A stretch of 64,000 nucleotides of DNA, taken from an uncultured Acidobacteriota bacterium (GTDB lineage Bacteria > Acidobacteriota > UBA6911). Positions within the stretch are counted from its first letter, which is position 1, and each line of letters opens with the position of its first letter. Below the pieces are notes generated by a model that worked only from the letters and a program-made list of their open reading frames with translations, did not search any database and had not been told where the DNA came from. The translations under genes were made by a program, and so were the position numbers. This document shows positions 1 to 43,212 of this stretch, piece after piece. The stretch is taken from assembly GCA_963827655.1 (NCBI GenBank), contig CAWHCF010000044.1, positions 128,001 to 192,000 on the forward strand, written 5' to 3'.

Positions 1-627
1 CGTTCCAAGGTCAAGAGCGAGCGAGCCCTCAGCGAACTGGCACAGGAAGGGTTTTCGCCTGTTTTTCTGCGCAACGGCACTATCTATGGCGTATCGCCTC
101 GAATGCGCTTCGACACGGTTTTCAATGACCTCGTGGGATCGGCGGTGACCACAGGTAAGGTCGTGGTATACAGCGACGGCAAGCCCTGGCGGCCGGTGCT
201 GCACGTCGCGGATGTCGCGCGCGCCTTCGAAGCGGTCCTCAAAGCGCCCACCGCGGCGGTCCACAACCAGGCATTTAACGTCGGCGCCAATCATCTAAAT
301 CATCAGATTATTGAGCTGGCCGAGATTGCCGTCGCGACCGTGCCCGGCTGCCGGCTGGAGGTATTGGCTCAGCCCGGCGCCGATCAGCGCACCTATAAAA
401 CCGACTTCGGCAAGTTTGCCAGGGTGATTCCCGGTTTTGAGTTCCAATGGACCGCGCGAACCGGGGCTCAACAGCTCTACGACGCATTCAAGACAGCCGG
501 GCTGGTACGCGACACTTTCGTTGACAAGCGGTTCACACGGCTGAAGTGGTTGCGCCATCTGTTGGACACGGGACAGCTCGACGCCAATCTGCGATGGAAA
601 AACGGCGCACGAGGAGAGCAGCAATGA
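1..627 (+). CDS. NAD-dependent epimerase/dehydratase (extended SDR), 5'-truncated by the window edge
   Basis: Frame is open from base 1 (RSKVKSERAL...LRNGTIYGVSPRMRFD...DGKPWRPVLHVADVARAF), a typical C-terminal half of an NDP-sugar epimerase. The TGA overlaps the next ATG (ATGA). Confidence 0.85.
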   Translation, partial: RSKVKSERALSELAQEGFSPVFLRNGTIYGVSPRMRFDTVFNDLVGSAVTTGKVVVYSDGKPWRPVLHVADVARAFEAVLKAPTAAVHNQAFNVGANHLNHQIIELAEIAVATVPGCRLEVLAQPGADQRTYKTDFGKFARVIPGFEFQWTARTGAQQLYDAFKTAGLVRDTFVDKRFTRLKWLRHLLDTGQLDANLRWKNGARGEQQ

Positions 628-1073
628 TTGATGGAGTGAAGATCGTTCCTTTGCGGCAGATCGTCGACGAACGTGGGAAGATCATGCATATGCTGAAGGC
701 GACCGACCCTCATTTCCTCGGCTTTGGCGAAATCTATTTCTCGTGCGCGTGGCCGGGTACGATCAAGGCCTGGCATATCCATCAGACGATGACGGTAAAT
801 AACGCCGTTCTTTCCGGCCGAGCCAAGCTGGTGATGTATGACCTGCGCAAGAATTCGGCTACGCAGGGCAAACTTCAGGAGGTCTTCCTGGGCGAGGATA
901 ACTACTGCCTGGTCCAGATTCCCCCGGGTATTGCCAACGGATACAAAGCCTATGGAGACAAGATGGTGATCCTGGCCAACTGCGGCACCGAGGCGCACGA
1001 TCCCAAAGAGATGCTGCGGCTCGATCCCTTTACCCCGGAAATACCGTATGATTGGGCGGTCAAACATGGCTAA
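624..1073 (+). CDS. dTDP-4-dehydrorhamnose 3,5-epimerase family (RmlC/RfbC-like cupin)
   Basis: MIDGVKIVPL...DERG...KAWHIH...YDLR...VQIPPGIANGY motifs. GAGGAG RBS and ATGA coupling at 624. Confidence 0.85.
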   Translation: MIDGVKIVPLRQIVDERGKIMHMLKATDPHFLGFGEIYFSCAWPGTIKAWHIHQTMTVNNAVLSGRAKLVMYDLRKNSATQGKLQEVFLGEDNYCLVQIPPGIANGYKAYGDKMVILANCGTEAHDPKEMLRLDPFTPEIPYDWAVKHG

Positions 1074-2088: not shown

Positions 2089-3369
2089 ATGGGAGATAAC
2101 GGTAAATTGAACTCGACAAAGAATGAATCCGTGCGTTGTATCGTGTGCGGTTTGCAGACGGTGGAGCGGTTCCTGCACCTCGGCGATACGGCGCTCGCCA
2201 ACAAGTTTCTGACCAGGGACGAACTGACCATCCCGGAGCCGACCTTTCCGCTGACGGTTGGCTTCTGCCATACCTGCGGCCATGTGCAGCTAACCGAAAG
2301 AGTGCCTCCGGTCGCCATGTTTCAGGACTATCTCTACGTATCCTCAGCTTCCGATACACTCAAGGATCATTTGTATGATTTGAGTGACACGCTCGTACAA
2401 CGATATTCCCTCGGCGCTGATGATCTGGTCATCGATATCGGATGCAATGACGGCACTCTCTTGAGCGGGTTTGCGCGTCATGGCGTGAAGACCCTGGGTG
2501 TGGATCCTGCCGAGAACCTGGCCGCCCTGGCGGGTAGTCGGGGAACCGAACGCTATGTCGGGTTCTTTACCTCAGCCTCGTCCGAGGAAATAATCCGGAG
2601 GTGGGGTCAGGCCTCGCTTATTACCGCGACCAATACTTTCCCCCACATCCCGGAGTTGCGTGATTTTGTCGCCGGAATCAAGAAGGTGCTCGAACCAGGG
2701 GGCGTGTTTGTCATCGAAGCACATTACCTGGTCGACATGCTGGAACAAGCCGCCTTTGATACCATCTATCACGAGCACGTTTCTTACTGGGCGTTAGGTC
2801 CGATGGTCCACCTCTTCGCTCAAGAAGGCATGGAAATCGTCAATGTCGAACGCCTGCCCCTCCATCATGGCCAGTTGCGGGTTGCGGTCCAGCGCAAAGG
2901 AGAGGGACGCGTGCAGCGAAGCGTCGTCGAATTGCTCGCATTGGAGCGGGAGCTAGGGATCGATCGGTTTGAAACCTACCAGCGCTTTGCCGAGCAAACC
3001 CAACAGCTCAAGCGCGATTTGCACTATACCCTGAGGGAACTGCGACGCCAGGGAAAACGAGTCGCCGGTTACGGAGCGCCGGCGAAGGGCAACACACTGC
3101 TGAGCTTTCTGGAGCTCGGTCCCGATACGGTCAACTACATCGCTGATCGCAGTCTGCTGAAACAAGGGCGCTATACGCCCGGTTCACACATTCCGGTCGT
3201 GCCTCCCGATCGACTGTTAGCCGACCAGCCTGATTACGTCTTGCTGCTCGCCTGGAACTTTACCGACGAAGTGCTGGGGCAGCAGGCGGAGTACCGAAAA
3301 CGGGGCGGCAAGTTCATCGTCCCGGTTCCGAACGTCAAGATAATAGAGCCTGCGCCATCCAGGAATTGA
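2089..3369 (+). CDS. NDP-hexose C-methyltransferase (Zn-binding N-terminus, class I SAM domain, C-methyltransferase C-terminal domain)
   Basis: CIVCG and CHTCGHVQL Zn ligands, DIGCNDG, IYHEHVSY, YGAPAKGNT and PDYVLLLAWNF, as in TcaB9/NovU-type C-methyltransferases. Confidence 0.9.
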   Translation: MGDNGKLNSTKNESVRCIVCGLQTVERFLHLGDTALANKFLTRDELTIPEPTFPLTVGFCHTCGHVQLTERVPPVAMFQDYLYVSSASDTLKDHLYDLSDTLVQRYSLGADDLVIDIGCNDGTLLSGFARHGVKTLGVDPAENLAALAGSRGTERYVGFFTSASSEEIIRRWGQASLITATNTFPHIPELRDFVAGIKKVLEPGGVFVIEAHYLVDMLEQAAFDTIYHEHVSYWALGPMVHLFAQEGMEIVNVERLPLHHGQLRVAVQRKGEGRVQRSVVELLALERELGIDRFETYQRFAEQTQQLKRDLHYTLRELRRQGKRVAGYGAPAKGNTLLSFLELGPDTVNYIADRSLLKQGRYTPGSHIPVVPPDRLLADQPDYVLLLAWNFTDEVLGQQAEYRKRGGKFIVPVPNVKIIEPAPSRN

Positions 3370-3398: not shown

Positions 3399-4280
3399 AT
3401 GGACCGAAAAAATCCGGCAAGTTGGGCTGTGGCCGCCGTCGCCTGGCGTCTTCATCACGTCAGGCGACTGACTAAATCGTACTTGCTGAAAAGGTGCAAG
3501 TCATACTTCGAGCGCCAGGGCTACGGGACTTACCTGGTGGCCAAGAAAGATTGCCTGGCTGCTTTGACCGTGAAAGAAGCGCAATACTACACTCAGTGGT
3601 GCGCCCCCTGCCCCCTCTTTACCCCATGGGCAGGGCATCCGGACTTTCAGAAGGTATATGAAGGTATCGAGCCTCACACGCTGGTTTCTCCCGAGCGATG
3701 CTACATGCTGGTGAGTCTGGCCCGTCACAGTCTGCATCTCGCCGGGGATTTTGCCGAATGCGGAGTTTATAGAGGCGGGACGGCGCTCTTGCTTTCTCGT
3801 GTTCTTGACGACGATCGGTTCGTAACCAGTCAGGCTAAGACCTTGTATCTGTTCGATAGTTTCGAGGGGTTACCCCGTAAAAACGGAAGTCACGATAATG
3901 TATACGGCGAAGGAACCTTCGCGATCGACTCGGTAGAATCGGTGAAGAGTCTCTTGAGCAGTTTCCGAAATTTTACCGACTTTCGCAAGGGTTGGATTCC
4001 CGATACTTTCCAGGGACTTGATGACAGGCGTTACGCCTTTGCCCACATCGATGTGGACCTCTATCAGTCTGCTCTGGATTGCTGCCGGTATTTTTATCCG
4101 CGCCTGGTCCCCGGTGGAGTGCTGGTCTTCGACGACTATGGATTCCCGGCGGCCCGTGGCGAAAAAGATGCTGTCGACGAGTTTTTTGCCGACAAGCCGG
4201 AATCTCCCATAACGCTCCTGACCGGACAATCCCTCGTCATAAAACTACCCGGATCAGCGGAACTAATCGCCGGAAAATGA
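3399..4280 (+). CDS. TylF/MycF/NovP-family sugar O-methyltransferase
   Basis: GDFAECGVYRGG, FDSFEGLP, HIDVDLY and FDDY motifs. Start codon uncertain. Confidence 0.88.
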   Translation: MDRKNPASWAVAAVAWRLHHVRRLTKSYLLKRCKSYFERQGYGTYLVAKKDCLAALTVKEAQYYTQWCAPCPLFTPWAGHPDFQKVYEGIEPHTLVSPERCYMLVSLARHSLHLAGDFAECGVYRGGTALLLSRVLDDDRFVTSQAKTLYLFDSFEGLPRKNGSHDNVYGEGTFAIDSVESVKSLLSSFRNFTDFRKGWIPDTFQGLDDRRYAFAHIDVDLYQSALDCCRYFYPRLVPGGVLVFDDYGFPAARGEKDAVDEFFADKPESPITLLTGQSLVIKLPGSAELIAGK

Positions 4281-5616
4281 ATTCAGCCGATTTAACCACC
4301 GGTCTCAATTTGGTTGACGCCGGGACAGAGATGTACGCCCTGGTTTCGGAGTTATATCCCATTTGCCGAAGCATCACGGGCGGCGGAGTGCGAGAGACCC
4401 TTCGTATCCTTCAAAGCCGGATTCCGCTCACAATCCATGAGATCCCCAGCGGCACACCCGTATTCGACTGGAATATTCCCAGAGAGTGGAACATCAGAGA
4501 TGCCTGCGTAAAGAATGCGCAAGGGGAGCGAGTCATAGATTTCAGGAAATCCAACCTGCACGTGGTCAGCTACAGCGTGCCGGTCAGAACCAGGATTCCG
4601 CTTGACGAGTTGAAAGAGCATCTGTTTACGCTCCCCGATCACCCGGACTGGATTCCGTATCGAACTTCATACTATGCGGAAAACTGGGGATTCTGCCTGA
4701 GCCACAATGAATTGATGCGGTTGAAGGATGGCGAATACGAGGTACTGGATCGATGCGTCTCTGGAAAAAGGTCACCTTACCTACGGCGAATACTATCTCG
4801 CAGGAGAGAGCGCCGAAGAGGTCCTGATATCCTGTCATGTCTGCCATCCGTCGCTGTGCAACGATAACCTTTCCGGCATTGCCCTGGCGGTGTCTCTGGC
4901 GCAGCGACTGGGGCAGGTCAAGCGCAGATATTCCTATCGATTTCTTTTTACCCCCGGAACCATCGGTTCCATAACCTGGCTCTCCTTGAACGAAGCGCAG
5001 CTTTCCCGAATCAAACACGGGCTGGTTTTAGCTTGTGTCGGGCGACTCGGGCAAGTTTACCTACAAAAAAACTCGCCGCGGCAATGCAGAGATTGACCGG
5101 GCCGTCGCCTATGTCTTCCAGCATGCGGGCAACGACTACGAGATCCTGAATTTTTCCCCCTACGGCTATGACGAGCGCCAGTTCTGCTCGCCGGCGTTCA
5201 ATCTTCCGGTTGGATGTTTTATGCGAACGCCGCACGGCCGCTTCCCGGAGTATCACACGTCCGCCGACAATCTTGATCTGGTGCGCCCTCAAAACCTTTC
5301 GGACTCGTTCGCCCGGTGTTTATCGGTTCTGCAGATCCTGGAGGAGAACAAGGCTTACCTGAACCAGAATCCAAAGTGCGAGCCGCAACTGGGCAAGCGA
5401 GGGCTCTATCGAACCATGGGAGGGGAAACCGATGGAAAAAGTCGTGAACTGGCAATGTTGTGGCTTTTGAATCTATCGGACGGCAGCCATACTTTGTTGG
5501 ACATCGCGGAGGAATCCGGGCTGGAGTTCGGTCTTATCAGTAGCGCCCGAGACGCGCTGGTGCAACACGGCCTGTTGAAGGAGCGTCCCGAAGAAGCGCA
5601 GCCGACCTGCAGGTAG
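4277..5616 (+). CDS. DUF4910/DUF2172 aminopeptidase-like (M28-fold) glycan-modification protein with C-terminal winged helix; frameshifts near 4745 and 5040
   Basis: LYPICRSITGGGVRETL, VFDWNIPREWNIRDA, PYRTSYY, HVCHPSLCNDNLSG, GYDERQFCSP, EYHTSADNL and KCEPQLGKRGLY occur across three overlapping ORFs. ATGA overlap with the upstream gene. Confidence 0.85.
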
Positions 5617-5644: not shown

Positions 5645-6367
5645 ATGGCAGACTTCACCAATCAGATAGCGGTTGTAACGGGCGCCAGCAGCGGCGTCGG
5701 CAGGGCCATTGCCCTTGCCCTCGCCGAGCAGGGGGCTACCGTCTGCCTTGTGGGGCGCAAGCTGGAAGCGCTTCAATCGGTTTCAGGCAGCGCCGGTTCC
5801 TCTCGCTTTTTCAGTTATCAGGCCGATCTCACGAACGACGAGGAAATCCATGAACTGGCGGCGCGCCTGCAGCGAGACGTCGGCTTTATCGACCTGCTGG
5901 TTCACAGCGCGGGCGTTATCGCGTTGGGACCGATCGAAGAGGCTCCGGTCGAAGACTTCGATCGCCAGTACCGCACTAATGTGCGCGGCCCTTACGTCCT
6001 TACCCAGGCACTGCTGCCTATGTTCCGCGGATCTCGAGGCGAGGTTGTATTTGTCAATTCCAGTATCGGTCTGAGCGCCAGAGCCGGCACGGGACAGTAC
6101 GCGGCAACCAAGCTCGCGCTCAAGGCCATCGCGGACAGCCTGCGCGCGGAAGTAAACGCGGATGGGCGGCGGGTACTCAGCGTATTTCTTGGACGAACCG
6201 CGACTCCGATGCAGCAGACTATTCACGATCGGGAAGGCCGGGACTATCATCCGGAGCTGCTGCTTCAGCCGGAAGACGTGGCCGCCGTGGTGTTGAACGC
6301 CGTCAGCTTGCCGCGGACCGCCGAAGTTACCGACATTAATATCAGGCCGATGATCAAGACGGCCTAG
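5645..6367 (+). CDS. Short-chain dehydrogenase/reductase
   Basis: TGASSGVG nucleotide-binding motif and YAATK catalytic YxxxK. Confidence 0.9.
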   Translation: MADFTNQIAVVTGASSGVGRAIALALAEQGATVCLVGRKLEALQSVSGSAGSSRFFSYQADLTNDEEIHELAARLQRDVGFIDLLVHSAGVIALGPIEEAPVEDFDRQYRTNVRGPYVLTQALLPMFRGSRGEVVFVNSSIGLSARAGTGQYAATKLALKAIADSLRAEVNADGRRVLSVFLGRTATPMQQTIHDREGRDYHPELLLQPEDVAAVVLNAVSLPRTAEVTDINIRPMIKTA

Positions 6368-6435: not shown

Positions 6436-7895
6436 ATGGATACTTCATTCTTGAAGTTGCTGCGCTGCCCTTTTTGTGCGGGGACTCTGAGCGCAAGCGG
6501 GCCTGAACCGGTTTCACCCGAACCGGAATACGGTGTGCTGAGCTGCTATTGCGGCCGGTACCCCATCGTGGCCGGCATTCCCGTTCTCAAAAAGGGAAAC
6601 ATCGGCAGCGCCGGACAAAGCAGCGAAGAGGTCATCGCCTTGATTGAGAATGGCCGGCGAGTCCGAGGCGCTGTTTTCTCTTTTGACACCGCCCGGCTTG
6701 CCGCCGTCGCCGTCCTGGATCCGTTCCTTGCCTTCGGTCACGGGAATCAATCGGGTCAAGAGCCTCGCGTCGGAGCGGTCGGCGCGCCAGTGGCAAGAGC
6801 AGGCGGCCCCGCTCCTGGCAGATGAAGAAGCGACGGCCTGTAACCTCCTGGATCTCTATTTCAGCAGGAATAAGAACAAGCTTGTCCGCGACTATTTCGC
6901 CTTCCGTTTCGGCAACGGGCGCTATCTGGTGGGCCTGTCTTTTGCTGCCAGCCTGGCAACCAGCCCGATCGAGCCCTGTTGGATTTGGCTTGCGGATGCG
7001 GCCACCTGACCAGCGGCCTGGTGCAGCAAGCGGAAGGCCGGCCCGGTGGTGGGAATGGACGATTCCTTTTTCGGACTCTATGTGGCCAAGCGTTGGACTG
7101 CGCCTCAGGCAGAATATGTCTGTTGCGCGGCCGATGGGTCCCTCCCTTTCCCGGATGGCGCCTTTTCGGCCGCATTCTGCTCCGATGCCTTTCACTATTT
7201 CTCTGCCAAGGCAACGAGCGCTCGGGAACTGAAACGCCTGACGCGGGACCACGGGATCATCGTCTTGTTCTGGGTGCGCAACGGGCTCTTGGAACATCCC
7301 TACGCCGGCTTGCCGCTGCCGCCGGCGGGTTATCAGGCTTTGGTCGCCGACATGCCCCACCGCCTGGTCGCGGACTCTGAAGTCCTGGCCGGTACCTGCG
7401 AAAGCAAGGCCCGCCGCTGGCTCGCTCCGCCGAGATCGAGAGTCTGGCCCAGTGAGCCCGTGCTCTCGATCGTGGCGTCGCATCGGCAAGAAGCACTCGT
7501 CGATTATGGTACCTTCGAGGATTGGCCGCACGCTCGAGGGCGCCTGGACTTGAACCCTCTGTATGTGAAAGAACCCAGGAACGGCGACGGAAGTGTGTCT
7601 TTGCGCCGTCGCTTTCCTTCCCCGCTCTACGAACAGCTGAACGAGGAGTGCAAGTCGTACCTGCCGGCATCCGTGGATGTGAACGAAACGATATGGACCG
7701 ATCTCGCGAACGGGAAAGCAAACTCAAGAGATCGAAACGTTGGTAGAGCAGTGCGTCTTGCTGGCTATCCCTGAGCGCTATGGGAATCCCAATGCCTCTC
7801 GTCTTCAAAGCATGGCGAGTGTCATCGGTTATCCTATGCTGTATTCGCTTGGTATCGAACTGTGTGAGAGCTTTGTTTGGGACGTACCCATATAA
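6436..7895 (+). CDS. Trm112-like Zn-knuckle fused to a class I SAM methyltransferase; several frameshifts
   Basis: LRCPFC...LSCYCGRYPIVAGIPVL (Trm112-like), then LDLACGCG and LPFPDGAF...SDAFHYF in successive frames. The last frame reads ...IPERY... to TAA at 7895. GAGG RBS upstream. Confidence 0.7.
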
Positions 7896-7931: not shown

Positions 7932-8980
7932 ATGACCCTCGAAAAACAATTTCTGTTTATCATAGGCGCCCCGAGAAGCGGAACTACGTGGCTGCAGGCC
8001 ATGGTGGGCGCGCATCCTTCAATCTGTACCACGGACGAGCTTAAAATCTTTGATTTTTTCACCGGTCCGTGGGGAAAGTCCTGGCAACAGCTCCTCAAGT
8101 TGCAAAAAGACGGCCGAGGGGCCCGGCGACATGGTTTGACTGGTGTCTGGTCGGAAGATGAATTCCGTGATTTCTTGAGGGAGTTTCTGGAGCGCGTATA
8201 TGCCCGTGTTCTGCAGAAGAAACCGGAGGCAACCGTCATCCTCGACAAGACTCCTGGATACTCTGACTACGTGGAGCACATCAACTGGCTCATCCCTCAG
8301 GCTAAGTTCATTCACCTGATCCGCGACGGACGGGATGTTGTTGTATCACTCCAGGCGGCGTCCCAGGGCTGGGGAAAAATGTGGGCACCCAAGAAAACCG
8401 AATCGGCCGCGCCCTTGTGGAAGTCAACGCTCCTGGCAGCCCGAAAGGGTCAGCAGTACGGGGATCGGTATCTGGAGGTGCGGTACGAGGATCTCTTGAC
8501 CAACGGCGCCCAGATACTCTCCTCGATATTCGAGTTTGTCGGCGTACCAATGAAGCCTGTGGATGCGGCCGCGATTTTTCAAGAGCATCAGTTCCAGAAG
8601 ATGAAAAAAGAACGGAGCCGGCGTTCAAAACTTTGGATTGCCGGAGGGCTTCTTCCGTAAAGGTCAGGCCGGAGACTGGCAAAATTCGCTGAAACCCAAC
8701 CAGCGTTATTCCATCCATGATACGGCGGGCGATCTGTTGTGCGAACTCGGGATATGCCCGCGATTCATGGTGGGTCGAGCGTTGGCACCAGCGTTTTACG
8801 CTGCCCTTGCTCGCCATGCTCCATAGCCGGAAGCGGATGCGGTTAAAGACCTTGTATGCAATCAAGCGCGCTCTGGGTCCGGTCTGGATCGAACGGATCC
8901 GGACCGCGCGGACGCGGGTGAGACCGCGCCAGATGGGTAGTGAACAGTACAAAGCGGGAGGGCGCGCAGCAACGCCGTAG
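7932..8980 (+). CDS. PAPS-dependent sulfotransferase (Sulfotransfer_3-like); frameshifts near 8620 and 8750
   Basis: FIIGAPRSGTTWL 5'-PSB loop, DKTP, IHLIRDGRDVVVS 3'-PB motif, VRYEDL and FFRKGQAGDW. Confidence 0.88.
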
Positions 8981-8988
8981 AGGACGGA

Positions 8989-9870: not shown

Positions 9871-9906
9871 TCTTAGTGTTTCTTCGTGCTTTCGTGTCTT
9901 AGTGGT
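9871..9906 (+). repeat. Degenerate tandem 8-bp repeat (CTTCGTGT family)
   Basis: tCTTAGTGTttCTTCGTGCTTTCGTGTCTTAGTGGT. Related copies lie at 15449-15500, 18063-18083 and 19020-19042. Confidence 0.7.
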
Positions 9907-9914
9907 ATTTGTTG

Positions 9915-13657: not shown

Positions 13658-15427
<1,770 letters not shown>

Positions 15428-31541: not shown

Positions 31542-31652
31542 GTCTCGCTTAATCTTTCAACTGCCACGCCTCCCGCCTACAGAATAGACAAGGGTCTCGG
31601 TGCTGAACCCCTAGGCGGGCAATTTAAGACCAAAGGATAAAGAGAACTAACC

Positions 31653-33416: not shown

Positions 33417-33488
33417 AGGAGTCTCTCCAAGAATTTGTAACTGTGATCCGCCTTCTGCGCATTAGCGTAAAGATTAGACCTGGGTAAA

Positions 33489-34652: not shown

Positions 34653-34698
34653 CGCCACTGAAATGGGCCTGAGTTAATCGACAGTAGATCTCCACAGC

Positions 34699-35515
34699 AT
34701 GACGAACGACCTTAAATCGAGAGCAGTAGAGTCTCTTCTAGAAGGAGCCACAATTCACAAGAGGTGGACCGATGACTATCGGACTCTTGAGAATCAGGGT
34801 TTTTTCGACGAGGCGTTCGCTTGTATCGCACGACTCATCGACGCCCCAGCGCGCTCAACTTTCCTGGACGCCGGTTGTGGGAGCGGCGCTCATTCCATAC
34901 GTCTGGCAACCCTGGGCTTTCTGGTTCATGCGCTTGACTTTTCAGAACCCGTCTTGACAAAAGCCAGACTCAATGTTTCAGCGAGCCAGTTGAATCAGCA
35001 AATCACGATTCACCGTGCCAACCTCCGCTCGCTGCCATTTAAAGACTCGACCTTTCGCTACGCACTATGTTGGGGAGTTCTGATGCACATTCCCGATCTC
35101 GGGCAAAGCGATATCCGAACTGGTCCGCGTCCTAGGACCAGGAGGAACACTGATTATTAGCGAGAACAACATGTATTCCCTTCAGGGGATGATTCGTTTT
35201 GTCCTCAAGAGGCTATTAGGAATCGGAAGAGCCTTGGTGAAGAAGACACCAGCAGGTCTTGAGTACTGGTACGGGAATGCTGACGACGCTCTTCTTACAA
35301 GACAAACGAATATACGCTGGCTAATTCATGAACTAGAAAACAATGGCTTCGTTGTAAGAGCACATTTCGCAGGTCAGTTTACTGATTTATATACTTCAGT
35401 ATACTCTCGATTAATGAAGAGACTGATTCACCGATTCAATAGTGTTTGGTTTAAATACATCAAGATTCCTTATCTAGCTACGGGAAACATACTCATCCTT
35501 CAAAAGGCAAATTGA
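34699..35515 (+). CDS. Class I SAM methyltransferase; frameshift near 35100
   Basis: FLDAGCGSG, LPFKDSTF and WGVLMHIP. Continues as ELVRVL.PGG.LIISENN into ORF 35171-35515. Confidence 0.8.
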
Positions 35516-35577
35516 GACCGCTTCTTCTCCGCCGCCGAAAGTCAACCTTCGGATTAAATTTTTGGAGTGGTGTTACC

Positions 35578-36826
35578 ATGCTGGGCAGTTGGAAGGCTGC
35601 AGTGAAAAGAATGGCAATATCGGCTTTCGATCGTCGACCCTTAGTGATGCATCTGGCCCCGGGATACCGGGCCGTCGATCCCCGTCTTTACCACTTGCAA
35701 TGCGATGCTCTAGTCAAAGCTGGTTGCACGATCGAGCTCGTGGCCCATTCGTCTAGCCCATTAGAAGTTGATTCGCGCGTCAGGTTGCATTCGCTTGGCG
35801 AACACAGATCGACGCTGGCTTGGCGTCTGGTTGATCGCTTCCAGCGTGTCCGAAAGGCCTTTGAGACAGCTTTGCGTTCCAAAGCCGCTCTCTTTCACTA
35901 TCATGGCCTCGAGTTCACACTGTGGGGGAAACGGCTCCGGCGTGTGTCGGGACGACCAGTCATCTTTGACTGCCGTGAGGATTACGAGGGATATGCCCGG
36001 CAACGCCGCGGTATTCCCAAGATGCTCCGTCCTTTTCTTGCCCGCCTTGTCCGTGCCCAGTTGCGGAACGCCGCCCGCAGCGCTGACGCAACCGTCGTAG
36101 CAGACCAGGGAACCGCTGATTTACTGAGCCCCTATGCACGCCGTCTCGTGATCGTGCATAATTTTCCGCGAGTCGAACTGTTCGACAGGCGCGTGAGCGG
36201 GTCGAGGGTCTCTTCGCTCACCGGCAAGACGATCCGGCTGCGACGGCCAGCCTGCCCCCGCAGACAAGCCCTATGACATTGTCCTTCACGGCAGCCTGCC
36301 GAAGTATCATCTGGAAGTCTGTCTCTCCATTGACGCCGCTCTGATAGAACGGGGGTATCGAGTACACTGGTTGTTAATGGGGAAAACTCCCGAGATGAAG
36401 TGGCTGACCCAGGAACTTACGCGCCGAGGCATCACTGAAAGATTCCACCTGAAGGATTTCATTCCTCATCGTGAGGTGGCAGGTGAGTTGAGCAAGGCGA
36501 AAGTGGGTATTATCCCTCTCCCCAACTTGCCTAAATTCCAGAATAACATCCCCCAGAAGTTATTCGAATTCATGGCTCTCGGCATACCGGTCGTTTTGAG
36601 CGATCTGCCTCCAAGCCGCCCCTTTGTCGGTGACGGCAGATCCGCTATTATGGTGGCCCCAGGAGACCACGGTGCCTACGCCGATGCCCTAATTCGGCTG
36701 CTGAAAAGTCCTCGACTGCGCGACGAGATGGGAAGAGAGGGAAGGAAAAGGGTAATGGAGGAGTATAACTGGGAGAAAGAATCGCAGAAGTTACTCAGTC
36801 TCTATCGGGAGCTCTTACCCGCATGA
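35578..36826 (+). CDS. Glycosyltransferase family 4; frameshift near 36250
   Basis: DPR, FDCREDY and HNFP in the first ORF. NIPQKLFEFMALGIPVVLSD and YNWE in the second. Same subfamily as 33489-34652. Confidence 0.83.
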
Positions 36827-37692
36827 CCCGGAGATTGATCATCACCGCTGACGACTACGGGATGTGCGCCTCCGTGAACGACGCGATTGAAGCATGCCTC
36901 AGCGCCGGCACCGTCCGAGCTACCTGCGCCATGGTGAACATGCCGCTGTTCAATGCGACGGCATCTCTGCGACAAGAGTTCCCAGACTGCTCCGTCGGTA
37001 TTCACTGGACGCTGACCCAGGGAAAGCCCATTCTTACGGCGGCCCAACTCCCAACTCTGGTCGGTGCGAATGGGGAGTTTCATCCGGTCCTCGAGTTCCG
37101 GCGCCGTTGGCTACGCGGTCGAATAGACGCCGATGAGATCCGACGTGAACTCAGGGCGCAGTGTCAGCAATTCAGTCAAGTCGCTGGCGTCCCGGACTTC
37201 TGGAATACCCATCAGAATTCGCACGTTCTTCCCCGCTTGTTTGCTCTCTTTGTGCTCGCGGGGCGGGAACTTGGAATTCCGGCCATGCGTAGCCACCGGC
37301 GCCTGACGGTGCCGTGCAACATGTCGCCTCTGCGCCACAATCTGAGCCATCCCTTGTACTGGTTCAAGGGACGGGTCATTGCGCGATGGGCGGCGAAGGC
37401 GGAGGCTGGCGGAGTATTGATGCCTGACGGCCGGGTGTATACCCCCGGTTATGATGGCGGGGGAATCGCCTCGCTTCCGGAAATCGTAGAGCGCATTGAA
37501 TGGAGCGCCGTAAGAAGAGCCGTCGAACTGGTGGTCCATCCGGCAACCGCAGTCGACGAACGCCTGTTTGGCAGCATGACGCAGTCTCGCCTTCTCGAGT
37601 ACAATGTGCTGCGCGAGCCGGCGCTCAAAGAACGGCTCCGCCAGAGCGATGTTGAGTTAGCCAGTTTTGAGGCGCTTCGGGCAAGTCAGTAG
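36823..37692 (+). CDS. ChbG/HpnK/YdjC-family carbohydrate deacetylase
   Basis: LIITADDYG, MVNMP, GIHWTL, THQNSH and ELVVHP. ATGA coupling. Confidence 0.88.
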   Translation: MTRRLIITADDYGMCASVNDAIEACLSAGTVRATCAMVNMPLFNATASLRQEFPDCSVGIHWTLTQGKPILTAAQLPTLVGANGEFHPVLEFRRRWLRGRIDADEIRRELRAQCQQFSQVAGVPDFWNTHQNSHVLPRLFALFVLAGRELGIPAMRSHRRLTVPCNMSPLRHNLSHPLYWFKGRVIARWAAKAEAGGVLMPDGRVYTPGYDGGGIASLPEIVERIEWSAVRRAVELVVHPATAVDERLFGSMTQSRLLEYNVLREPALKERLRQSDVELASFEALRASQ

Positions 37693-37849
37693 TTTTGAAA
37701 GTATAGAGAGAAGGTAACAGGAATGATGTGGGTTTGAAGTATGTTGCCGCATTCTACTCAAAAGGGGAAGAGACCGACCTCCTGGGAGGTGGACGTCATC
37801 AAGACGTCATCAAGATGCTAAACTTCAAATGGACCTTGGGAGGAATTGT

Positions 37850-38779
37850 ATGAGCCGGGACGAACTGCGCCGCAAACCGGTTCAAGAAATTGAGGCTCAC
37901 GAAATCGACGCGTTCCTCAAGCGCCGCAAGCCATTCGTTGTCCGAGGATGGCTCCAGGATAAGCTGAAACAGGACGACCCTGTGTGGGAGAGGACTAAAG
38001 CCCGGGTGATTGTCATTCCTCCAGAGTCCAAAGCTGTCACGTCCGTTGCTCAGCGCGCGGCCGGGAAAGAGCTTGTGGAAATGACCTACCGGGAGGTGTT
38101 CGATAAGATCGCCTCTGAGCGCGAGGGCGTACGATACTACGTCTTTGGAGACTATAGTCCCGCGGAGATTTGGAAGGCTCTTCCCTGGCCGAAGCCTGTC
38201 CACGGGTCCACGATCTACGTAACTTCCGGAGACACTCTTTCAAAGGCCCATTTCGATTTTTGGAACGTGTTCCTGATCCAAATCGAAGGTAGGAAGAGTT
38301 GGAAACTGTTTTCCCCGTCGGATTATCCGTTCATGTATCCGGTTCACAACAGCGTCACAGGTGAAGTACAGCGATGCCTGGCGGACTTGGAGACTCCGGA
38401 CTTTAAAGCCTATCCCCTGCTGAGAAGGGTAACCTGCCATCACGTGACCGCCGGGGCAGGCGATCTTCTCTGGATGCCACCTCGGTGGTGGCATGAGGTG
38501 CGTACGGAGTCGTTTTCCGTAACGCTCAACGCCTCACTGTACCAATCGCGCGCGGAGTCCGCCAGAGAGATTTTCTCGTACTTCGGAAACAGCTTGCGAG
38601 CCCGCTTTGTGTACCGCAGCTCCCATCACATACCTCTGGTGACGTTGCTAACACCGGTGATACCGCCCAGGCTGGCTGCGAGAATTGAAGCTACTCTTGA
38701 TCGCTTTAACGACTGGCGGGCGCAGCGGCGAGCAACGAGTGTGCAAAAGGCCCCTACGCAAGATCGCACGGTTCATTGA
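37850..38779 (+). CDS. JmjC/Cupin_8 Fe(II)/2-oxoglutarate-dependent hydroxylase
   Basis: HFD...H facial triad (KAHFDFWN; GDLLWMPPRWWHEV) and QIEGRKSWKLFSP. GGAGG RBS. Confidence 0.85.
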   Translation: MSRDELRRKPVQEIEAHEIDAFLKRRKPFVVRGWLQDKLKQDDPVWERTKARVIVIPPESKAVTSVAQRAAGKELVEMTYREVFDKIASEREGVRYYVFGDYSPAEIWKALPWPKPVHGSTIYVTSGDTLSKAHFDFWNVFLIQIEGRKSWKLFSPSDYPFMYPVHNSVTGEVQRCLADLETPDFKAYPLLRRVTCHHVTAGAGDLLWMPPRWWHEVRTESFSVTLNASLYQSRAESAREIFSYFGNSLRARFVYRSSHHIPLVTLLTPVIPPRLAARIEATLDRFNDWRAQRRATSVQKAPTQDRTVH

Positions 38780-38885
38780 TAGACGTGCGGTCGTTCGGGA
38801 AAAGGTGCCGATGCAGGCCAGTGAACAGGATGTTCGTTGAAACCATCGCAAACTCGCGATATAAGTCTGTGAGTCGAGACATGCA

Positions 38886-39958
38886 ATGAATCTAAAGAAA
38901 GAAGCAGTCAGCTAGTGCTTGAAGACGGGTCCCTGTTTGAGGGCCAGGCCTTCGGCTTCCCCTCAGCTATCGCCGGCGAAGTAGTCTTTAACACCGGCAT
39001 GGTGGGATATCCTGAAGCTTTTACCGACCCTTCCTACAAAGGTCAGATCCTGGTCCTCACCTATCCGCTCATCGGAAACTACGGTGTGGCCGGCGGCGCT
39101 GGAGGACACAACAGCCTCGAAGGGACTTTCGAATCCAGCAAGATGCAGATTTCTGGGCTGGTCGTCTCCGAGGTTTCGTCGAATCACAGCCACTGGAACG
39201 CCACCATGAGTTTGATCGAGTGGCTTCATCAGGAGAAGGTGCCCGCCTTGTCCGGAATCGACACGCGGGCCCTGACGAAGCACTTGCGTGAGCAAGGGAG
39301 CATGGGAGGCAAAATCGTTACCGGAAGCGACGACGTTGAATTCTACGACCCCAACCAGGATAATCTGGTTTCATTCGTAAGCGTCCCGGAACCCATCCTC
39401 TATCCCGGTGGCAAGAAGCGAATCGTCGTCGTCGACTGTGGCTGCAAGAGCAGTATTATTCGAAGCCTGCTGGCTCGAGACGTCACCGTGATCAGGGTTC
39501 CGTGGAATTACGATTTTCTCCGGGAAGAGTTTGACGGCGTGCTGATCTCAAACGGTCCCGGAGACCCGAAGATGTGCGTCGAGACTATCGCGAACGTGCG
39601 GCGGGCGATGGAACGGGAATACCCCATCCTCGGCGTATGCCTCGGTCACCAGGTCCTCGCCTTGGCGGCAGGGTGCGACACCTACAAGCTGAAGTTCGGA
39701 CATCGCAGCCAGAACCAGCCGTGCAAACAGGTGGGAACGAATCGCTGCTACATCACCTCTCAGAATCACGGTTATGCGGTCGACAGCGAGACGCTGCCGT
39801 CTGGTTGGGAGCCGTGGTTCACCAACGCCAATGACGGGACTAACGAGGGCATCCGCCATCGCTCCCGCCCGTTCATGAGTGTCCAGTTTCATCCTGAGGC
39901 AGCCCCCGGACCGGTTGATTCCAACTTTCTCTTCGATGAGTTCTTAGAGACGATATGA
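38886..39958 (+). CDS. carA: Carbamoyl-phosphate synthase small subunit (start either ATG 38886 with an indel, or GTG 38915)
   Basis: LEDG, GEVVFNTGMVGYPE, TDPSY.GQIL, SNGPGDP, GVCLGHQ, TSQNHGYAV and VQFHPE. Confidence 0.95.
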
Positions 39959-42900
39959 TGAACGAGAAGCCCACGAAAGTTCTCGTGCTCGGCAGCGGAG
40001 CGCTGAAGATCGGCGAGGCAGGGGAATTTGACTATTCAGGCAGCCAGGCCATCAAGGCATTGAAGGATGAAGGAATCCGGACGATCCTGGTCAACCCGAA
40101 CATCGCCACGATCCAGACGTCGGATTACCTCGCAGACCAGATCTATTTTCTGCCCATCAATCGCTATTTCGTCGAGCGGGTCATCGAGAAGGAACGGCCA
40201 GACGGCATCATGCTCGGCTTCGGGGGCCAGACTGCCCTGAATTGCGGTCTGGACCTCGAGCGGAATGGCGTGCTCGACCGATATGGCGTCCGCATTCTGG
40301 GCACGCCTATCCAGGCTATCCGTGAGACCGAGGACCGCGATCTGTTTGTCAAGAAACTAGCCGAAATCTCGGTCAAGGTGCCCCGAAGCGCCGCCGCTAC
40401 TTCGGTCGAAGAGGCAGTCTCAATTGCCAGTGAGATCGGGTATCCCGTCATGCTCCGGGTTGCCTATGCTCTGGGCGGTCTCGGCTCAGGTCTTTGCGAA
40501 AGCGAGGACGAAGTGCATGACCGTGCCACCCGGGCTTTCGCTCACAGTCCCCAGGTGCTCATTGAGGAATACCTGACCGGCTGGAAGGAAGTGGAATACG
40601 AGGTGGTCCGCGACCGCTACGACAACTGCGTCACCGTGTGCAACATGGAAAACTTCGACCCCATGGGAATTCACACCGGCGAAAGCATTGTCGTGGCTCC
40701 GAGCCAGACGCTCACCAACAGCGAGTACCACCTTCTTCGACAGATCTCCATTCAGGTAGTGCGCCATCTCGGCATCGTGGGTGAATGCAACATTCAGTTC
40801 GCCCTTGACCCGAATTCCCAGGATTACCGCGTCATCGAAGTGAATGCCCGGTTATCGCGCAGCTCCGCTCTCGCCTCCAAGGCAACCGGCTACCCTCTGG
40901 CTCTCGTGGCCGCCAAGCTCGGGCTGGGCTATGGCCTCACCGAACTGCAGAATTCGATAACAAGCGTAACATCAGCCTGTTTCGAACCCGCCCTGGACTA
41001 TGTGGTTGTCAAGATTCCGCGCTGGGACTTGCAAAAGTTCCGACGGGTCTCGAAGCGCCTTGGATCCGGAATGAAATCCGTCGGCGAGGTCATGGCCATA
41101 GGCCGCAAGTTCGAGGAAGCCTTGCAAAAAGCGCTGCGCATGCTGGACATCGGGGTTGGTGGCCTGGTGGGAAATGACAGCTTCAGGTTTAGCGATCTGG
41201 AGCGAGAGCTTCACGAGCCGACCCACGAGCGGATATTCGCAATCCCTGAAGCCATCAAACAAGGTTATTCAATTGATCGCATCCACGAGCTTTCGCGCAT
41301 CGACAAATGGTTCCTACACAAGATTGAGAAGATCGTAGACATCGAGGGCAGAGTCCGCCAAAGCGCAGGCCGGCAATGTTCTCGGGAACTTCTCATGGAG
41401 GCGAAGCGCTCCGGTTTTGCCGATCAGCAGATCGCTCGATCAATGGGCTTCGAGGAAGCACAGATAAGAGAACTGCGGCATGAATATGGCATCGTTCCTT
41501 GCGTGAAGCAGATCGATACTTTGGCAGCGGAGTACCCTGCTCAGACCAACTACCTCTATCTCACCTATAACGGCCAGGAAGACGACGTCGCTTTCAATGG
41601 AAAAAACTCCGTCATCGTCCTGGGATCCGGGGCTTACCGCATCGGCAGTTCGGTCGAGTTTGACTGGTGTTGCGTCAATACCGTTTTGACGCTCAGGAAG
41701 CTCGGATACAGGACCATCATAATTAACTGCAACCCCGAGACAGTCAGCACCGACTACAACGAGTGCGACAAGCTCTACTTCGACCAGCTGAATCTCGAAA
41801 CCGTTCTGGATATATACAGGAAAGAGAACCCCATCGGCATCATCATCTCGGTGGGAGGTCAGATTCCCAACAACCTCGCTATGCGACTCCAGGAGGCCGG
41901 AGTCAACGTGCTGGGCACTTCACCCTCGAGTATCGACGCGGCCGAGGACAGGCACAAGTTCTCTCAATTGCTGGATCAGCTGGGAATCGAGCAGCCGGCG
42001 TGGAAGGAATTGGTCTCCATTGAGGAGGCGAAGGCGTTCGCCCAGAAGGTGGGTTATCCCGTATTGGTGCGCCCTTCGTATGTGCTCAGCGGCGCCGCCA
42101 TGAGCGTGGCCTCAAACGACGCCGAGTTGGCCAAGTTCCTGGAAAGAGCCACCGAAGTGTCCCCAATACATCCGATTGTGCTCAGCAAATTCGTGGAAAA
42201 CGCCAAGGAACTGGAAATCGACGCGGTAGCCCGCGATGGCGAACTGGTTGCCTCGGCGATCTCCGAGCATGTAGAGAACGCCGGGGTTCATTCGGGCGAC
42301 GCGACTCTCGTACTCCCGCCGCAGCGGACCTACCTCGAAACCATGCGCCGGATCAGAAAGATCACCAGGAGAATTGCCGAATCTCTCAAGATCAACGGAC
42401 CGTTCAACATCCAGTTCATTGCCAAGGGAAACGAGGTCAAGGTAATCGAATGCAACCTCCGAGCCTCCCGCAGCTTCCCCTTTGTCTCGAAGATCCTGAG
42501 GGTCAACTTTATCGATCTGGCAACGCGAGTGATCATGGGACATGCCGTGCCGAAACTGAACGGATCGCTGCTTGAGGTTGACTATGTTGGAGTGAAGGCG
42601 CCGCATTTCTCGTTCATGCGCCTTGACGGCGCAGATCCGACGCTCGGAGTCGAAATGGCTTCCACCGGCGAAGTCGCTTGCCTGGGAGACGATTTTGACG
42701 AGGCCTTCCTGAAGTCTTTGCTGTCGGTTGGGTATCGTTTGCCGGTCCGAAACGTCTTTCTTTCCACCGGTCCCATCGAGCACAAGGCGGCCTTTCTCGA
42801 AAGTACGCGTGTACTCAAAAACCTGGGAGTGAACATCTACGCCACCAAGGGGACCGCGGAGTTTCTCCGCAGCAATGACATCGAGACGACTACTCTCCCC

Positions 42901-43212
42901 TGGCCGTTGGAGGAGCAGGGCCACATCACTCTGGAGTATCTCAGCCAGGGGAAGATCGATCTCGTCATCAATATTCCGAAGAACTACCAGGAGGAGGAGC
43001 TGACCAACGACTATATCATTCGTCGCCGCGCCGCCGATTTTGGCGTCCCGTTGATCACAAATATACAACTGGCGGAGCGGTTCGTGGATGCCCTTTCCAG
43101 GAAACGACTCGATGATTTGGAGATCAAGAGCTGGAGCGAGTACGAAGGCCGGGTATCGGACCTCGATGTAAGTCCAATGAAGCCTGTCTTCTCGTACAAG
43201 GAAACTGCGTAG
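39955..43212 (+). CDS. carB: Carbamoyl-phosphate synthase large subunit
   Basis: Intact 1085 aa ORF with duplicated ATP-grasp halves: GEFDYSGSQA, GIHTGES, SRSSALASKATGYP, NCNPETVSTD, GVHSGDA. C-terminal MGS-like domain. Confidence 0.97.
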   Translation: MMNEKPTKVLVLGSGALKIGEAGEFDYSGSQAIKALKDEGIRTILVNPNIATIQTSDYLADQIYFLPINRYFVERVIEKERPDGIMLGFGGQTALNCGLDLERNGVLDRYGVRILGTPIQAIRETEDRDLFVKKLAEISVKVPRSAAATSVEEAVSIASEIGYPVMLRVAYALGGLGSGLCESEDEVHDRATRAFAHSPQVLIEEYLTGWKEVEYEVVRDRYDNCVTVCNMENFDPMGIHTGESIVVAPSQTLTNSEYHLLRQISIQVVRHLGIVGECNIQFALDPNSQDYRVIEVNARLSRSSALASKATGYPLALVAAKLGLGYGLTELQNSITSVTSACFEPALDYVVVKIPRWDLQKFRRVSKRLGSGMKSVGEVMAIGRKFEEALQKALRMLDIGVGGLVGNDSFRFSDLERELHEPTHERIFAIPEAIKQGYSIDRIHELSRIDKWFLHKIEKIVDIEGRVRQSAGRQCSRELLMEAKRSGFADQQIARSMGFEEAQIRELRHEYGIVPCVKQIDTLAAEYPAQTNYLYLTYNGQEDDVAFNGKNSVIVLGSGAYRIGSSVEFDWCCVNTVLTLRKLGYRTIIINCNPETVSTDYNECDKLYFDQLNLETVLDIYRKENPIGIIISVGGQIPNNLAMRLQEAGVNVLGTSPSSIDAAEDRHKFSQLLDQLGIEQPAWKELVSIEEAKAFAQKVGYPVLVRPSYVLSGAAMSVASNDAELAKFLERATEVSPIHPIVLSKFVENAKELEIDAVARDGELVASAISEHVENAGVHSGDATLVLPPQRTYLETMRRIRKITRRIAESLKINGPFNIQFIAKGNEVKVIECNLRASRSFPFVSKILRVNFIDLATRVIMGHAVPKLNGSLLEVDYVGVKAPHFSFMRLDGADPTLGVEMASTGEVACLGDDFDEAFLKSLLSVGYRLPVRNVFLSTGPIEHKAAFLESTRVLKNLGVNIYATKGTAEFLRSNDIETTTLPWPLEEQGHITLEYLSQGKIDLVINIPKNYQEEELTNDYIIRRRAADFGVPLITNIQLAERFVDALSRKRLDDLEIKSWSEYEGRVSDLDVSPMKPVFSYKETA

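Follow-up and report, generated by a model that had tools for sequence, protein, structure and literature searches.

Gene clusters that encode their own supply of 3′-phosphoadenosine 5′-phosphosulfate (PAPS) are already known from the nod and saxitoxin systems. In the rhizobial Nod-factor genes, nodPQ provide a second sulfate activation for the sulfotransferase encoded by nodH, alongside nodU, nodS and nodB; to our knowledge, the nod regions encode no carbamoyl-phosphate synthase. Bacteroides-type capsule loci are long and lie on one strand, with a NusG-like UpxY gene first and Wza- and Wzc-like genes following it. In the saxitoxin (sxt) clusters, as described in the available portions of the reports, SxtI together with SxtJ and SxtK transfers the carbamoyl group from carbamoyl phosphate, and the same clusters carry a sulfotransferase (sxtN), an adenylylsulfate kinase for PAPS (sxtO) and Rieske oxygenases (PMC2679770, PMC2684587). 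The synechan (xss) cluster of Synechocystis 6803 has sulfotransferase genes inside a Wzx/Wzy-type exopolysaccharide locus, and its authors, in the part of the article drawn on here, state that they are aware of no other bacterial exopolysaccharide cluster with sulfotransferase genes and of no report of a sulfated polysaccharide from other bacteria (PMC8205485). WapO (PA5005), a NodU-family enzyme of Pseudomonas lipopolysaccharide, is held in the accessible part of its report to O-carbamoylate a core heptose (PMC8005017). Here we describe a glycan gene run from an uncultured soil bacterium of the Acidobacteriota that holds genes for both a PAPS synthase (sat-cysC) and a carbamoyl-phosphate synthase (carAB). 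The window is the whole 64-kb stretch analyzed, C44:128001-192000 (contig CAWHCF010000044.1) of an 8.18 Mb genome in 53 contigs (59% G+C, rated 90% complete), and the run occupies its positions 1-43212. We consider it probable that the island to which the run belongs carries its own donor supply, that its carAB was acquired horizontally and replaced the native copy, and that the breaks in its reading frames are assembly errors.

Pfam and NCBIfam scans of the forward-strand frames of 1-43212 detect each of the enzyme classes named in a preliminary description of this DNA. The tailoring set comprises eight methyltransferases, one sulfotransferase, two carbamoyltransferases, three AsnB-like proteins and two deacetylase-type proteins; a metallo-β-lactamase (MBL)-fold and Rieske pair, a JmjC protein, a DUF2172/DUF4910 protein, a CapA-like protein, one GT2 and three GT4 glycosyltransferases and one Bac_transf priming transferase are also present. 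Where about 36 co-directional genes had been counted, we find about 38 once fragments are merged, all on the forward strand except for one 318-nt minus-strand call that has no family match in the Pfam and NCBIfam scans. Both sat-cysC (13658-15427) and carAB (38915-43212) lie within this run on the same strand, as had been proposed. Translational coupling holds for seven true 4-nt overlaps; several other apparent overlaps are not coupling, because frame breaks split the genes concerned. The run extends ~38 kb 5′ of the window, the contig being occupied from ~C44:89455, and 1-43212 is the 3′ half of a ~82-kb one-strand island. The described balance, with four glycosyltransferases against about 20 tailoring enzymes, is true only inside the window, since the upstream half adds at least four GT2 and GT4 genes and a Glyphos_transf-like gene, for an island total of at least nine glycosyltransferases. 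Soil and rhizosphere metagenomes of 16 studies carry the stretch at 90-99% similarity.

The carAB genes encode CarA, the glutamine-hydrolysing small subunit (38915-39958; TIGR01368, 445 bits against a cut-off of 307), with CPSase_sm_chain and class-I GATase domains, and CarB, the large subunit (39955-43212; TIGR01369, 1545 bits against 1027), with two ATP-grasp halves, an oligomerisation domain and an MGS-like allosteric domain. Both proteins are 41-49% identical to those of relatives whatever the kinship (20 genomes; 14 loci). For comparison, an rpoB fragment shows 83-96% identity within the family and 73-79% within the class, and an AddA-like gene of the same contig, located 50 kb upstream, shows 49-57% and 30-39%, respectively. 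As the AddA-like gene follows kinship, the contig belongs to the host lineage. In all four same-family relatives examined, the native genes, in the order carB-carA, lie between orthologues of C41:154268-157984 and C41:161055-164327. In the genome studied here these flanking genes stand 3 kb apart and enclose a fumarylacetoacetase gene and an unknown gene (C41:158242-160428, split by a frame change), and no carAB remnant was found at this site. The window carAB is not the family's native, vertically inherited gene. Among the 401 genomes of the phylum that were scanned, three of them unpublished and used in this tally only, the best foreign CarA is 64% identical, and the window type occurs as the single copy in some other classes. 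Five named genomes were searched for both carAB types together, and none has the window type.

The surroundings of related carAB loci point to a tie with carbamoylation. The 80 best metagenome loci by CarA (51-98% identity) were scored as linked when a carbamoyltransferase-1-type gene (≥50% identity), an SxtJ gene or a DUF5989 gene lay within 4 kb of carAB; 30 are linked, 12 have 2.5 kb or more of sequence on each side of carAB but none of these genes, and 38 do not extend far enough to be scored. Gene orders in the linked loci vary, from transferase-carA-carB-SxtJ-DUF5989 to the module lying upstream on the same strand or divergent from carAB, and the neighbors include GT4, Wza, SGNH-like, PMT-type, sulfotransferase and PIG-L genes. 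A CarB tree (quick LG+G4 search) was built from the 71 rows with near-full-length CarB, after exclusion of 44 partial rows among 115. In this tree the window protein falls in a clade with SH-aLRT support of 99 that holds 15 linked, seven undeterminable and no unlinked loci, and the native CarB forms the outgroup. Among the 51 family genomes scanned there is one other carrier, G415, which belongs to the genus nearest by rpoB. Its CarA and CarB are 70% and 78% identical to those of the window and represent the only carAB copy there, and adding its CarB to the tree places it in the same clade, the support then being 100. The order in G415, on one strand, is C-methyltransferase, carbamoyltransferase, SxtJ, DUF5989, WbpM-like protein, ~7 kb, carA, carB and priming transferase. 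The junction of the window carA with the JmjC gene before it is not an assembly chimera, since it is reproduced by two independent soil contigs, L115 (YdjC-JmjC-carA-carB) and L129 (GT4-YdjC-JmjC-carA), and by one short-read DNA contig that spans JmjC-carA. Contigs from two metatranscriptome libraries cover parts of carbamoyltransferase 2, carB, a methyltransferase gene and the response regulator gene and none spans JmjC-carA; DNA carry-over is possible in these libraries, so that the covered genes are not proof of transcription. Foreign origin, the empty native site and the linked CarB clade support the proposal that carAB is functionally part of the cluster.

On the sulfate side, Sat-CysC (13658-15427; NF004040, 843.8 bits against a cut-off of 669) combines PUA-like, ATP-sulfurylase and adenylylsulfate (APS)-kinase domains in one chain, and is the sole Sat and sole APS kinase of the genome (tblastn, E ≤ 1e-10). 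The PAPS-type sulfotransferase at 7932-8660 (Sulfotransfer_3, PF13469, 111.6 bits against 27; Sulfotransfer_1, PF00685, 68.7 against 22) contains near its N-terminus the stretch GAPRSGTTW, which we take to be the P-loop-like phosphosulfate-binding loop. Elsewhere in the genome, CysD (318.9 bits against 195) adjoins a CysN-like GTPase gene on contig C20, and CysH, itself frame-split, adjoins a NirA-like sulfite/nitrite reductase gene on C25. CysH carries CC...CxxC cysteines, presumably the mark of APS reductases rather than PAPS reductases, so that sulfate assimilation is expected to proceed without PAPS. Among 20 relatives, three have a full-length Sat-CysC homologue (66-72% identity, with no kinship gradient), a fourth has a partial one, and the closest proteins elsewhere, ≤80% identical, belong to other phyla. 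Since CysDN, an APS-reductase-type CysH and a sulfite reductase are encoded elsewhere, and since the distribution of Sat-CysC in relatives is patchy with its nearest proteins in other phyla, Sat-CysC is an accessory PAPS synthase. The proposal of a dedicated PAPS supply thus stands insofar as an accessory synthase is borne by the cluster. It falls short in that this is the only APS kinase and the genome carries three Sulfotransfer_3 genes, so that Sat-CysC would serve sulfation generally, not this cluster alone. In the same-family relative G002, sat-cysC lies directly 5′ of a carbamoyltransferase gene, matching the window order. At that locus (L216, G002:C16:333700-339900, in an 8.2-Mb genome) the carbamoyltransferase is a distant paralogue of 37-45% identity, and a Bac_transf gene lies 2 kb further on.

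The upstream half of the island, all on the forward strand, supplies the machinery for export and for further sugar precursors. The first gene of the run, from ~C44:89455, encodes a LuxR-type regulator. An UpxY-family antiterminator (C44:91492-92142; NF033644, 111.9 bits against a cut-off of 100) directly precedes Wza (Poly_export), which is accompanied by Wzc (Wzz/GNVR/kinase). The genes after Wzc encode a third carbamoyltransferase (58% identity to carbamoyltransferase 1), accompanied by a small membrane protein and by two proteins with weak SGNH-like matches, and the profile scans then find a second CapA-like gene followed by several GT2 genes. NeuC (355.9 bits against 235.9) is followed by a cytidylyltransferase, a Glyphos_transf-like gene and a GT4 gene, and a Wzy_C fragment lies in the middle of the island. 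At C44:120396-122571 lie Wzm (ABC2_membrane, 71.5 bits) and Wzt, whose ABC_tran domain is joined to a C-terminal glycan-binding domain (Wzt_C, 40.5 bits); a permease and an ATPase of this build are those of an ABC-transporter-dependent polysaccharide pathway. A decaprenyl-phosphate phosphoribosyltransferase (321 bits against 234) and a 652-aa membrane protein without a family (C44:122355-125528) hint that a periplasmic glycosyltransferase is supplied with a lipid-linked pentofuranose donor. At the 3′ end of this half, GmhA and a fused GmhB/HddC-like protein, taken with the dehydratase, RmlC-like cupin and HddA-like kinase that open the window, make up what is by family assignment a complete GDP-heptose branch. 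The preliminary description had looked to the flanking contig for wzx, wzy, wzc or ABC export genes. Wza, Wzc, a Wzy-like protein and Wzm/Wzt are indeed there. The first three and the priming transferase are of the kinds found in a Wzx/Wzy pathway; no ORF scanned matches a Wzx family, even at E 0.1.

At least 10 genes in 1-43212 have consecutive Pfam profile parts in two or three frames. These are the GHMP kinase, the DUF4910 protein (three frames), the methyltransferase at 6822-7774, the GT2 enzyme, the deacetylase, the methyltransferase at 10791-11685, AsnB-like protein 1, carbamoyltransferase 1, the methyltransferase at 34699-35515 and the GT4 enzyme at 35512-36826. In these genes domain coverage is full and the correct frames are without internal stops, and the GT4 of 35512-36826 is a single 416-aa ORF in contig L129 (88.5% nucleotide identity). 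Outside this part, a DegT aminotransferase (61826-63068) and several β-helix genes are also split. The genome's own rpoB (C8:77700-81924) lies in two overlapping frames of 1161 and 392 aa, while 19 of 20 relatives have it as an unbroken frame of 1342-1471 aa, the exception (G009) having a 759-aa frame. As an essential gene is broken too, assembly indel errors are the most likely cause. A codon-usage frame tracker trained on the genome's own long ORFs, which yields a crude estimate, counts 2065 direct same-strand switches in the whole genome, 1066 of them frameshift-like (1.3 per 10 kb, on all contigs). At roughly one frame break per 8 kb of assembly, gene counts taken from it are unreliable. 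Contigs of four public runs, compared over 24001-44000, did not decide the cause of the breaks, since they come from other strains. Short-read contigs of related strains show three single-base deletions within 130 nt at 26729-26857, and a compensating insertion and deletion 22 nt apart at 25329-25351; these are either self-cancelling local errors or strain differences.

Several observations weigh against the reading we favor. The genome has only this one carAB, no second copy being detected with the window proteins or with a relative's CarA and CarB, and the upkeep of a sole carbamoyl-phosphate synthase needs no glycan link. It stands 21 kb from carbamoyltransferase 1 and 5.5 kb from carbamoyltransferase 2, outside the 4 kb used to score linkage, and a 135-nt spacer precedes carA. 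The wider CarAB relatives (52-64% identity) serve other classes of the phylum as their one carAB, and a carbamoyltransferase is near none of the 20 loci examined, which makes the window type overall an ordinary housekeeping enzyme. The 15 linked loci of the clade represent about nine distinct lineages, and many come from related soil samples. Across 80 Sat-CysC loci of named genomes there is no conserved gene cluster (a similar sulfotransferase occurs at two, a carbamoyltransferase at two and a WbpM-like gene at five), and promoter and terminator scans gave counts equal to those of shuffles and were uninformative. To these belong the frame tracker's 10 events in 1-43212, at 2.3 per 10 kb about twice the genome mean, and the indels seen against short-read contigs, which are mostly outside homopolymers, the contigs being from other, 90-99% similar strains. 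Our first reading, made from the sole copy, was indeed that carAB is merely an adjacent housekeeping gene, and it was largely dropped on ancestry, the empty site and the clade. That carAB is a plain housekeeping synthase at the end of a glycan run, with no tie to carbamoylation, would suit its single copy, the three genes of the ornithine or aspartate carbamoyltransferase (OTCase/ATCase) family elsewhere in the genome, the spacer and the 20 unlinked wider-type loci. It is nonetheless unlikely, given that the gene is not the family's native one and the native site is empty, that all 15 informative loci of its clade are linked to carbamoyltransferase, SxtJ and DUF5989 genes in several gene orders, and that glycan genes flank carAB on both sides in G415. 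The clade upholds the described carbamoyl-phosphate supply; the word dedicated is too strong for it, because the sole carAB must also feed the three OTCase/ATCase-family enzymes. A decaying cluster, with real breaks and many tailoring genes reduced to pseudogenes, would account for at least 10 split genes in 43 kb at twice the genomic rate and for indels that mostly avoid homopolymers, and both the excess of breaks and those indels in other strains leave some room for real gene decay. We judge decay of the cluster to be very unlikely, since rpoB is split here and whole in 19 of 20 relatives (G009 excepted), all contigs carry some of the roughly 1066 such events, the GT4 of 35512-36826 is intact in L129, and the split genes retain full domain coverage in stop-free frames.

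How many products the island makes is a separate matter, and here the balance is even. Two or more separate glycans or transcription units, for example a heptose-rich polymer exported by Wzm/Wzt and a Wzy-type exopolysaccharide, would be in keeping with the two export routes (Wza/Wzc/Wzy-like and Wzm/Wzt) and the Wzy-like gene upstream. The same holds for the sugar-precursor branches, at least three in number (heptose, a NeuC-type nonulosonic acid, a decaprenyl-phosphoribose donor and a 4,6-dehydrated N-acetylhexosamine), and for 11 spacers of ~100 nt or more in the window run. The unbroken strand over ~82 kb, the single UpxY-type antiterminator at the head, the one priming transferase found in the island and the lack of a detected Wzx flippase speak for a single system. 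Contig L129, 88.5% identical over 3.9 kb, places a GT4 gene 63% identical to that at 28308-29339 directly before the GT4 gene corresponding to 35512-36826, without AsnB-like protein 3, carbamoyltransferase 2, one GT4 and one methyltransferase gene between them. This order suggests that the island varies in a modular fashion, and the missing AsnB-3/carbamoyltransferase-2 block likewise favors several products. The single short repeat unit of the preliminary description is doubtful; several glycans would rival only that point, and they fit a donor supply encoded by the island. A small glycosylated or alkaloid natural product, saxitoxin- or aminoglycoside-like, is another matter. An SxtI/J/K-like trio with sulfotransferase, APS kinase and Rieske protein does occur together in sxt clusters, as the available text lists them (PMC2679770), and TylF-type and C-methyltransferases are typical of antibiotic deoxysugar pathways too. 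The ORFs scanned hold no polyketide-synthase-like, amidinotransferase or non-ribosomal peptide synthetase domain, however, and Wza, Wzc, the Wzy-like protein, Wzm/Wzt, the priming transferase and at least nine glycosyltransferases make such a product scarcely credible.

Returning to an island with its own donors, we infer the substrates, co-transcription and number of products from gene content, copy numbers, phylogeny and linkage as observed above. The island would make one or more heavily decorated surface glycans, with the UpxY-type antiterminator, Wza and Wzc at its head and the Wzy-like protein and Wzm/Wzt in its middle. The window part would contribute the GDP-heptose branch with C- and O-methylation, a PglF/WbpM-type dehydratase and the priming transferase, four glycosyltransferases and about 20 tailoring enzymes. 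For sulfation, Sat-CysC would convert sulfate and two ATP to PAPS for the neighboring sulfotransferase, and sulfur assimilation would proceed separately through CysDN, the APS reductase and the sulfite reductase. For carbamoylation, CarAB would convert glutamine, bicarbonate and two ATP to carbamoyl phosphate, which the NodU/TobZ-type transferases would use with ATP to O-carbamoylate sugars, assisted by SxtJ and DUF5989. This chemistry is proposed from family knowledge: carbamoyl-AMP is formed and its carbamoyl group transferred in TobZ, and AsnB homologues amidate uronic acids. We speculate that SxtJ and DUF5989 may anchor the transferase to the membrane at the site of assembly of carrier-linked units. 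The carAB genes would have entered by horizontal transfer inside a carbamoyltransferase-linked module of a glycan cluster. The two synthases would then have been redundant, the native carAB would have been lost, and the cluster copy would now feed arginine and pyrimidine synthesis as well. A wider claim is possible, though we hold it tentatively. A distinct CarAB branch may have been recruited as an in-cluster donor generator for glycan O-carbamoylation, within a mobile carbamoyltransferase-SxtJ-DUF5989-carAB module widespread among soil bacteria; here it would have displaced the housekeeping enzyme and left central nitrogen metabolism reliant on a glycan island, whose product would be a sulfated, carbamoylated, amidated, methylated and N-glycolylated non-cyanobacterial polysaccharide.

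The remaining genes of the run are all on the forward strand. The window opens with the 3′ part of a short-chain dehydrogenase/reductase-type sugar dehydratase/epimerase (1-627; frame open from C44:127545, Pfam Epimerase profile positions 145-240 only), an RmlC-like cupin of the sugar 3,5-epimerase type (546-1073; PF00908, 52.9 bits) and the GHMP kinase (1048-2083). The latter is HddA-like, although its score with the HddA model NF049969 (69 bits) is under the cut-off, and lies in two frames that break near 1590-1650 (GHMP_kinases_N at 1048-1656, GHMP_kinases_C at 1604-2083). A two-domain NDP-sugar C-methyltransferase (2089-3369; Methyltransf_13 and Methyltransf_14, 193 bits) and a TylF-like O-methyltransferase (3399-4280; PF05711, 91 bits) are followed by the aminopeptidase-like DUF2172/DUF4910/HTH_47 protein (4277-5616), whose profile parts fall in ORFs 4079-4867, 4728-5096 and 5035-5616. 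Next come a short-chain dehydrogenase (5645-6367; adh_short, 148 bits) and a small ORF (6436-6825) with no family at E ≤ 0.001 and a weak Trm112p-like match at E 0.046. In the split methyltransferase at 6822-7774, Methyltransf_11 positions 22-95 match from residue 2 of ORF 7046-7774 and the start lies in another frame. Beyond the sulfotransferase, the GT2 enzyme of ~300 aa (8944-9859) is split near 9140-9240, with its N-terminal GT2 signature at 8944-9237 and the remainder at 9137-9859. The NodB-fold polysaccharide deacetylase (9903-10725; Polysacc_deac_1) has its N-terminal part in frame 9903-10151, and the methyltransferase at 10791-11685 matches Methyltransf_11 positions 45-95 from residue 2 of ORF 11080-11685. 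AsnB-like amidotransferase 1 (11754-13527), with GATase_7 at 11754-12494 and Asn_synthase at 12205-13527, precedes sat-cysC.

Both window carbamoyltransferases belong to the NodU/CmcH/TobZ family of O-carbamoyltransferases, with a Kae1-like Carbam_trans_N and a YrdC-like Carbam_trans_C domain. In the first (15575-17426), split near 16650-16730, these domains span two frames (381 bits, 15575-16729; 255 bits, 16512-17426); the second (31653-33416) is intact, at 132 and 181 bits, respectively. The spacer between sat-cysC and the first transferase (15428-15574) holds a hairpin-forming short repeat at 15442-15501, with a stem of ~16 bp and no T-run, parts of which recur six times elsewhere in the genome and occur also in the relatives G010 and G007; it resembles repeats of the REP type. 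After carbamoyltransferase 1 come the SxtJ-like small membrane protein (17447-17842; PF19588, 71 bits, ~3 hydrophobic spans) and the DUF5989 (SxtK-like) peptide (17869-18021; PF19451, 86.5 bits, one hydrophobic span), and then two methyltransferases (18018-19025, Methyltransf_23 and Methyltransf_11; 19043-19918, Methyltransf_23, 83.5 bits). The MBL-fold protein (19944-21266; Lactamase_B_3), of NamH/CMAH type, and the Rieske [2Fe-2S] protein (21263-21591; PF00355, 66.6 bits), its probable hydroxylase partner, lie on adjacent genes, not in one chain. The pair looks like a split NamH/CMAH-type enzyme that would convert N-acetyl to N-glycolyl groups; homologues of the MBL-fold protein (67-77% identity) bear the source name UDP-MurNAc hydroxylase, which is a name only. 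NeuC and the cytidylyltransferase lie upstream in the same island.

The priming enzyme is a small polyprenyl-phosphate sugar-phosphate transferase (21563-22219; Bac_transf, 183 bits; TIGR03025, 218 bits, under the cut-off). It is followed by the CapA-like (PGA_cap) metallophosphatase-fold protein (22216-23316; PF09587, 198 bits), a divergent AsnB-like protein 2 (23313-24539; Asn_synthase, 33 bits, residues 254-331 only), a protein without a family match in the Pfam and NCBIfam scans (24536-25272) and a methyltransferase with weak matches (25298-26128; DOT1, 28.5 bits, and Methyltransf_25). A membrane-anchored UDP-HexNAc (N-acetylhexosamine) 4,6-dehydratase of WbpM/PglF type (26229-28208; Polysacc_synt_2, 389 bits) precedes a GT4 (28308-29339) that is C-terminally short in the assembly, the Glycos_transf_1 profile ending at position 125 of 172 and an independent contig showing eight gaps across 29139-29951. 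AsnB-like amidotransferase 3 (29682-31541; TIGR01536, 456 bits against 267) is intact. Carbamoyltransferase 2 is followed by a GT4 (33489-34652; Glyco_trans_1_4, 79.8 bits), a probably split methyltransferase (34699-35515), in which the Methyltransf_25 profile halts at position 79 of 97 at the ORF end, and the split GT4 of 35512-36826 (N-terminal domain 35512-36276, C-terminal domain 36371-36826). A YdjC-family deacetylase-type protein (36823-37692; PF04794, 182 bits) and a JmjC/cupin_8 oxygenase (37829-38779; Cupin_8, 90 bits) lead to carAB. The same-strand run ends with a LuxR-type response regulator (Response_reg with GerE) and a PilZ-domain protein (43414-44603).

No tRNA gene was found flanking the island. 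Downstream in the window, minus-strand stretches at 45762-47661 and 57318-61345 encode several right-handed β-helix proteins (Pel9A-like, DUF1565, NosD-like), some of them frame-split, which may be glycan lyases or hydrolases. PMT_2-type GT-C fragments in three frames and a 516-aa protein without a family lie at 48701-53885, a GT2 with a DUF2304 partner at 50874-52080 and a weak DDE transposase remnant at 50568-51050 on the minus strand. Codon usage is atypical across 47608-50997 and 53635-57351.

If the proposed explanation is correct, carAB linked to carbamoyltransferase genes would serve as a marker by which carbamoylated polysaccharides could be predicted from the genomes of uncultured soil bacteria. 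The island would also give the unexplained SxtJ and SxtK (DUF5989) proteins a first functional setting outside toxin clusters, and it would clearly exemplify how a core metabolic gene can be replaced by a pathway-borne paralogue. Full-text literature searches, with most subscription journals outside their scope, gave no report of a carbamoyl-phosphate synthase linked to glycan clusters with carbamoyltransferase modules.

Compared with the systems described at the outset, the island resembles Bacteroides-type capsule loci in being headed by UpxY, Wza and Wzc on one strand, and it exceeds them three- to fourfold in length. The genome yielded no SusD-family gene, so that the host is not a typical member of the Bacteroidia. 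With the nod genes it shares its own sulfate activation and sulfotransferase, a NodU-type carbamoyltransferase, a methyltransferase and a NodB-fold deacetylase. A Nod-factor-like reading of this set (GT2, deacetylase, methyltransferase, sulfotransferase, NodU) was considered and rejected: the GT2 is a small, non-processive protein of ~300 aa, neither NodA nor NodC is matched, and scores with the equivalog models for NodU and NodB are far under the cut-offs (42-142 against 1000 and 77 against 240, respectively). Moreover, the PAPS synthase here is a Sat-CysC fusion, whereas NodPQ is CysDN-like, and the island product would be built on a polyprenyl carrier and leave by polysaccharide export machinery. 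As in the sxt clusters, SxtJ/SxtK-type proteins accompany a carbamoyltransferase, a sulfotransferase, an APS kinase and a Rieske protein. In contrast to them, the setting is glycan assembly and export, and core sxt enzymes are lacking, no domains of an SxtA-type polyketide-like synthase or SxtG amidinotransferase being present among the scanned ORFs, which match SxtJ, DUF5989 and generic tailoring families only; conversely, the sxt genes listed in the available text include no carbamoyl-phosphate synthase (PMC2679770, PMC2684587). The joining of heptose synthesis and carbamoyltransferases recalls WapO, but that enzyme is a single tailoring gene in a core-oligosaccharide cluster that uses the housekeeping carbamoyl-phosphate pool, and the part of the report drawn on describes neither SxtJ/DUF5989 nor carAB with it (PMC8005017). 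Like xss, the island places a sulfotransferase within a polysaccharide cluster. In what is available of the synechan article, xss lists no PAPS-synthesis gene or carbamoyltransferase and the main text does not mention PAPS (PMC8205485). The island thus points to sulfated exopolysaccharides beyond the cyanobacteria, and would extend the statement made by the synechan authors in that part of their article (PMC8205485).

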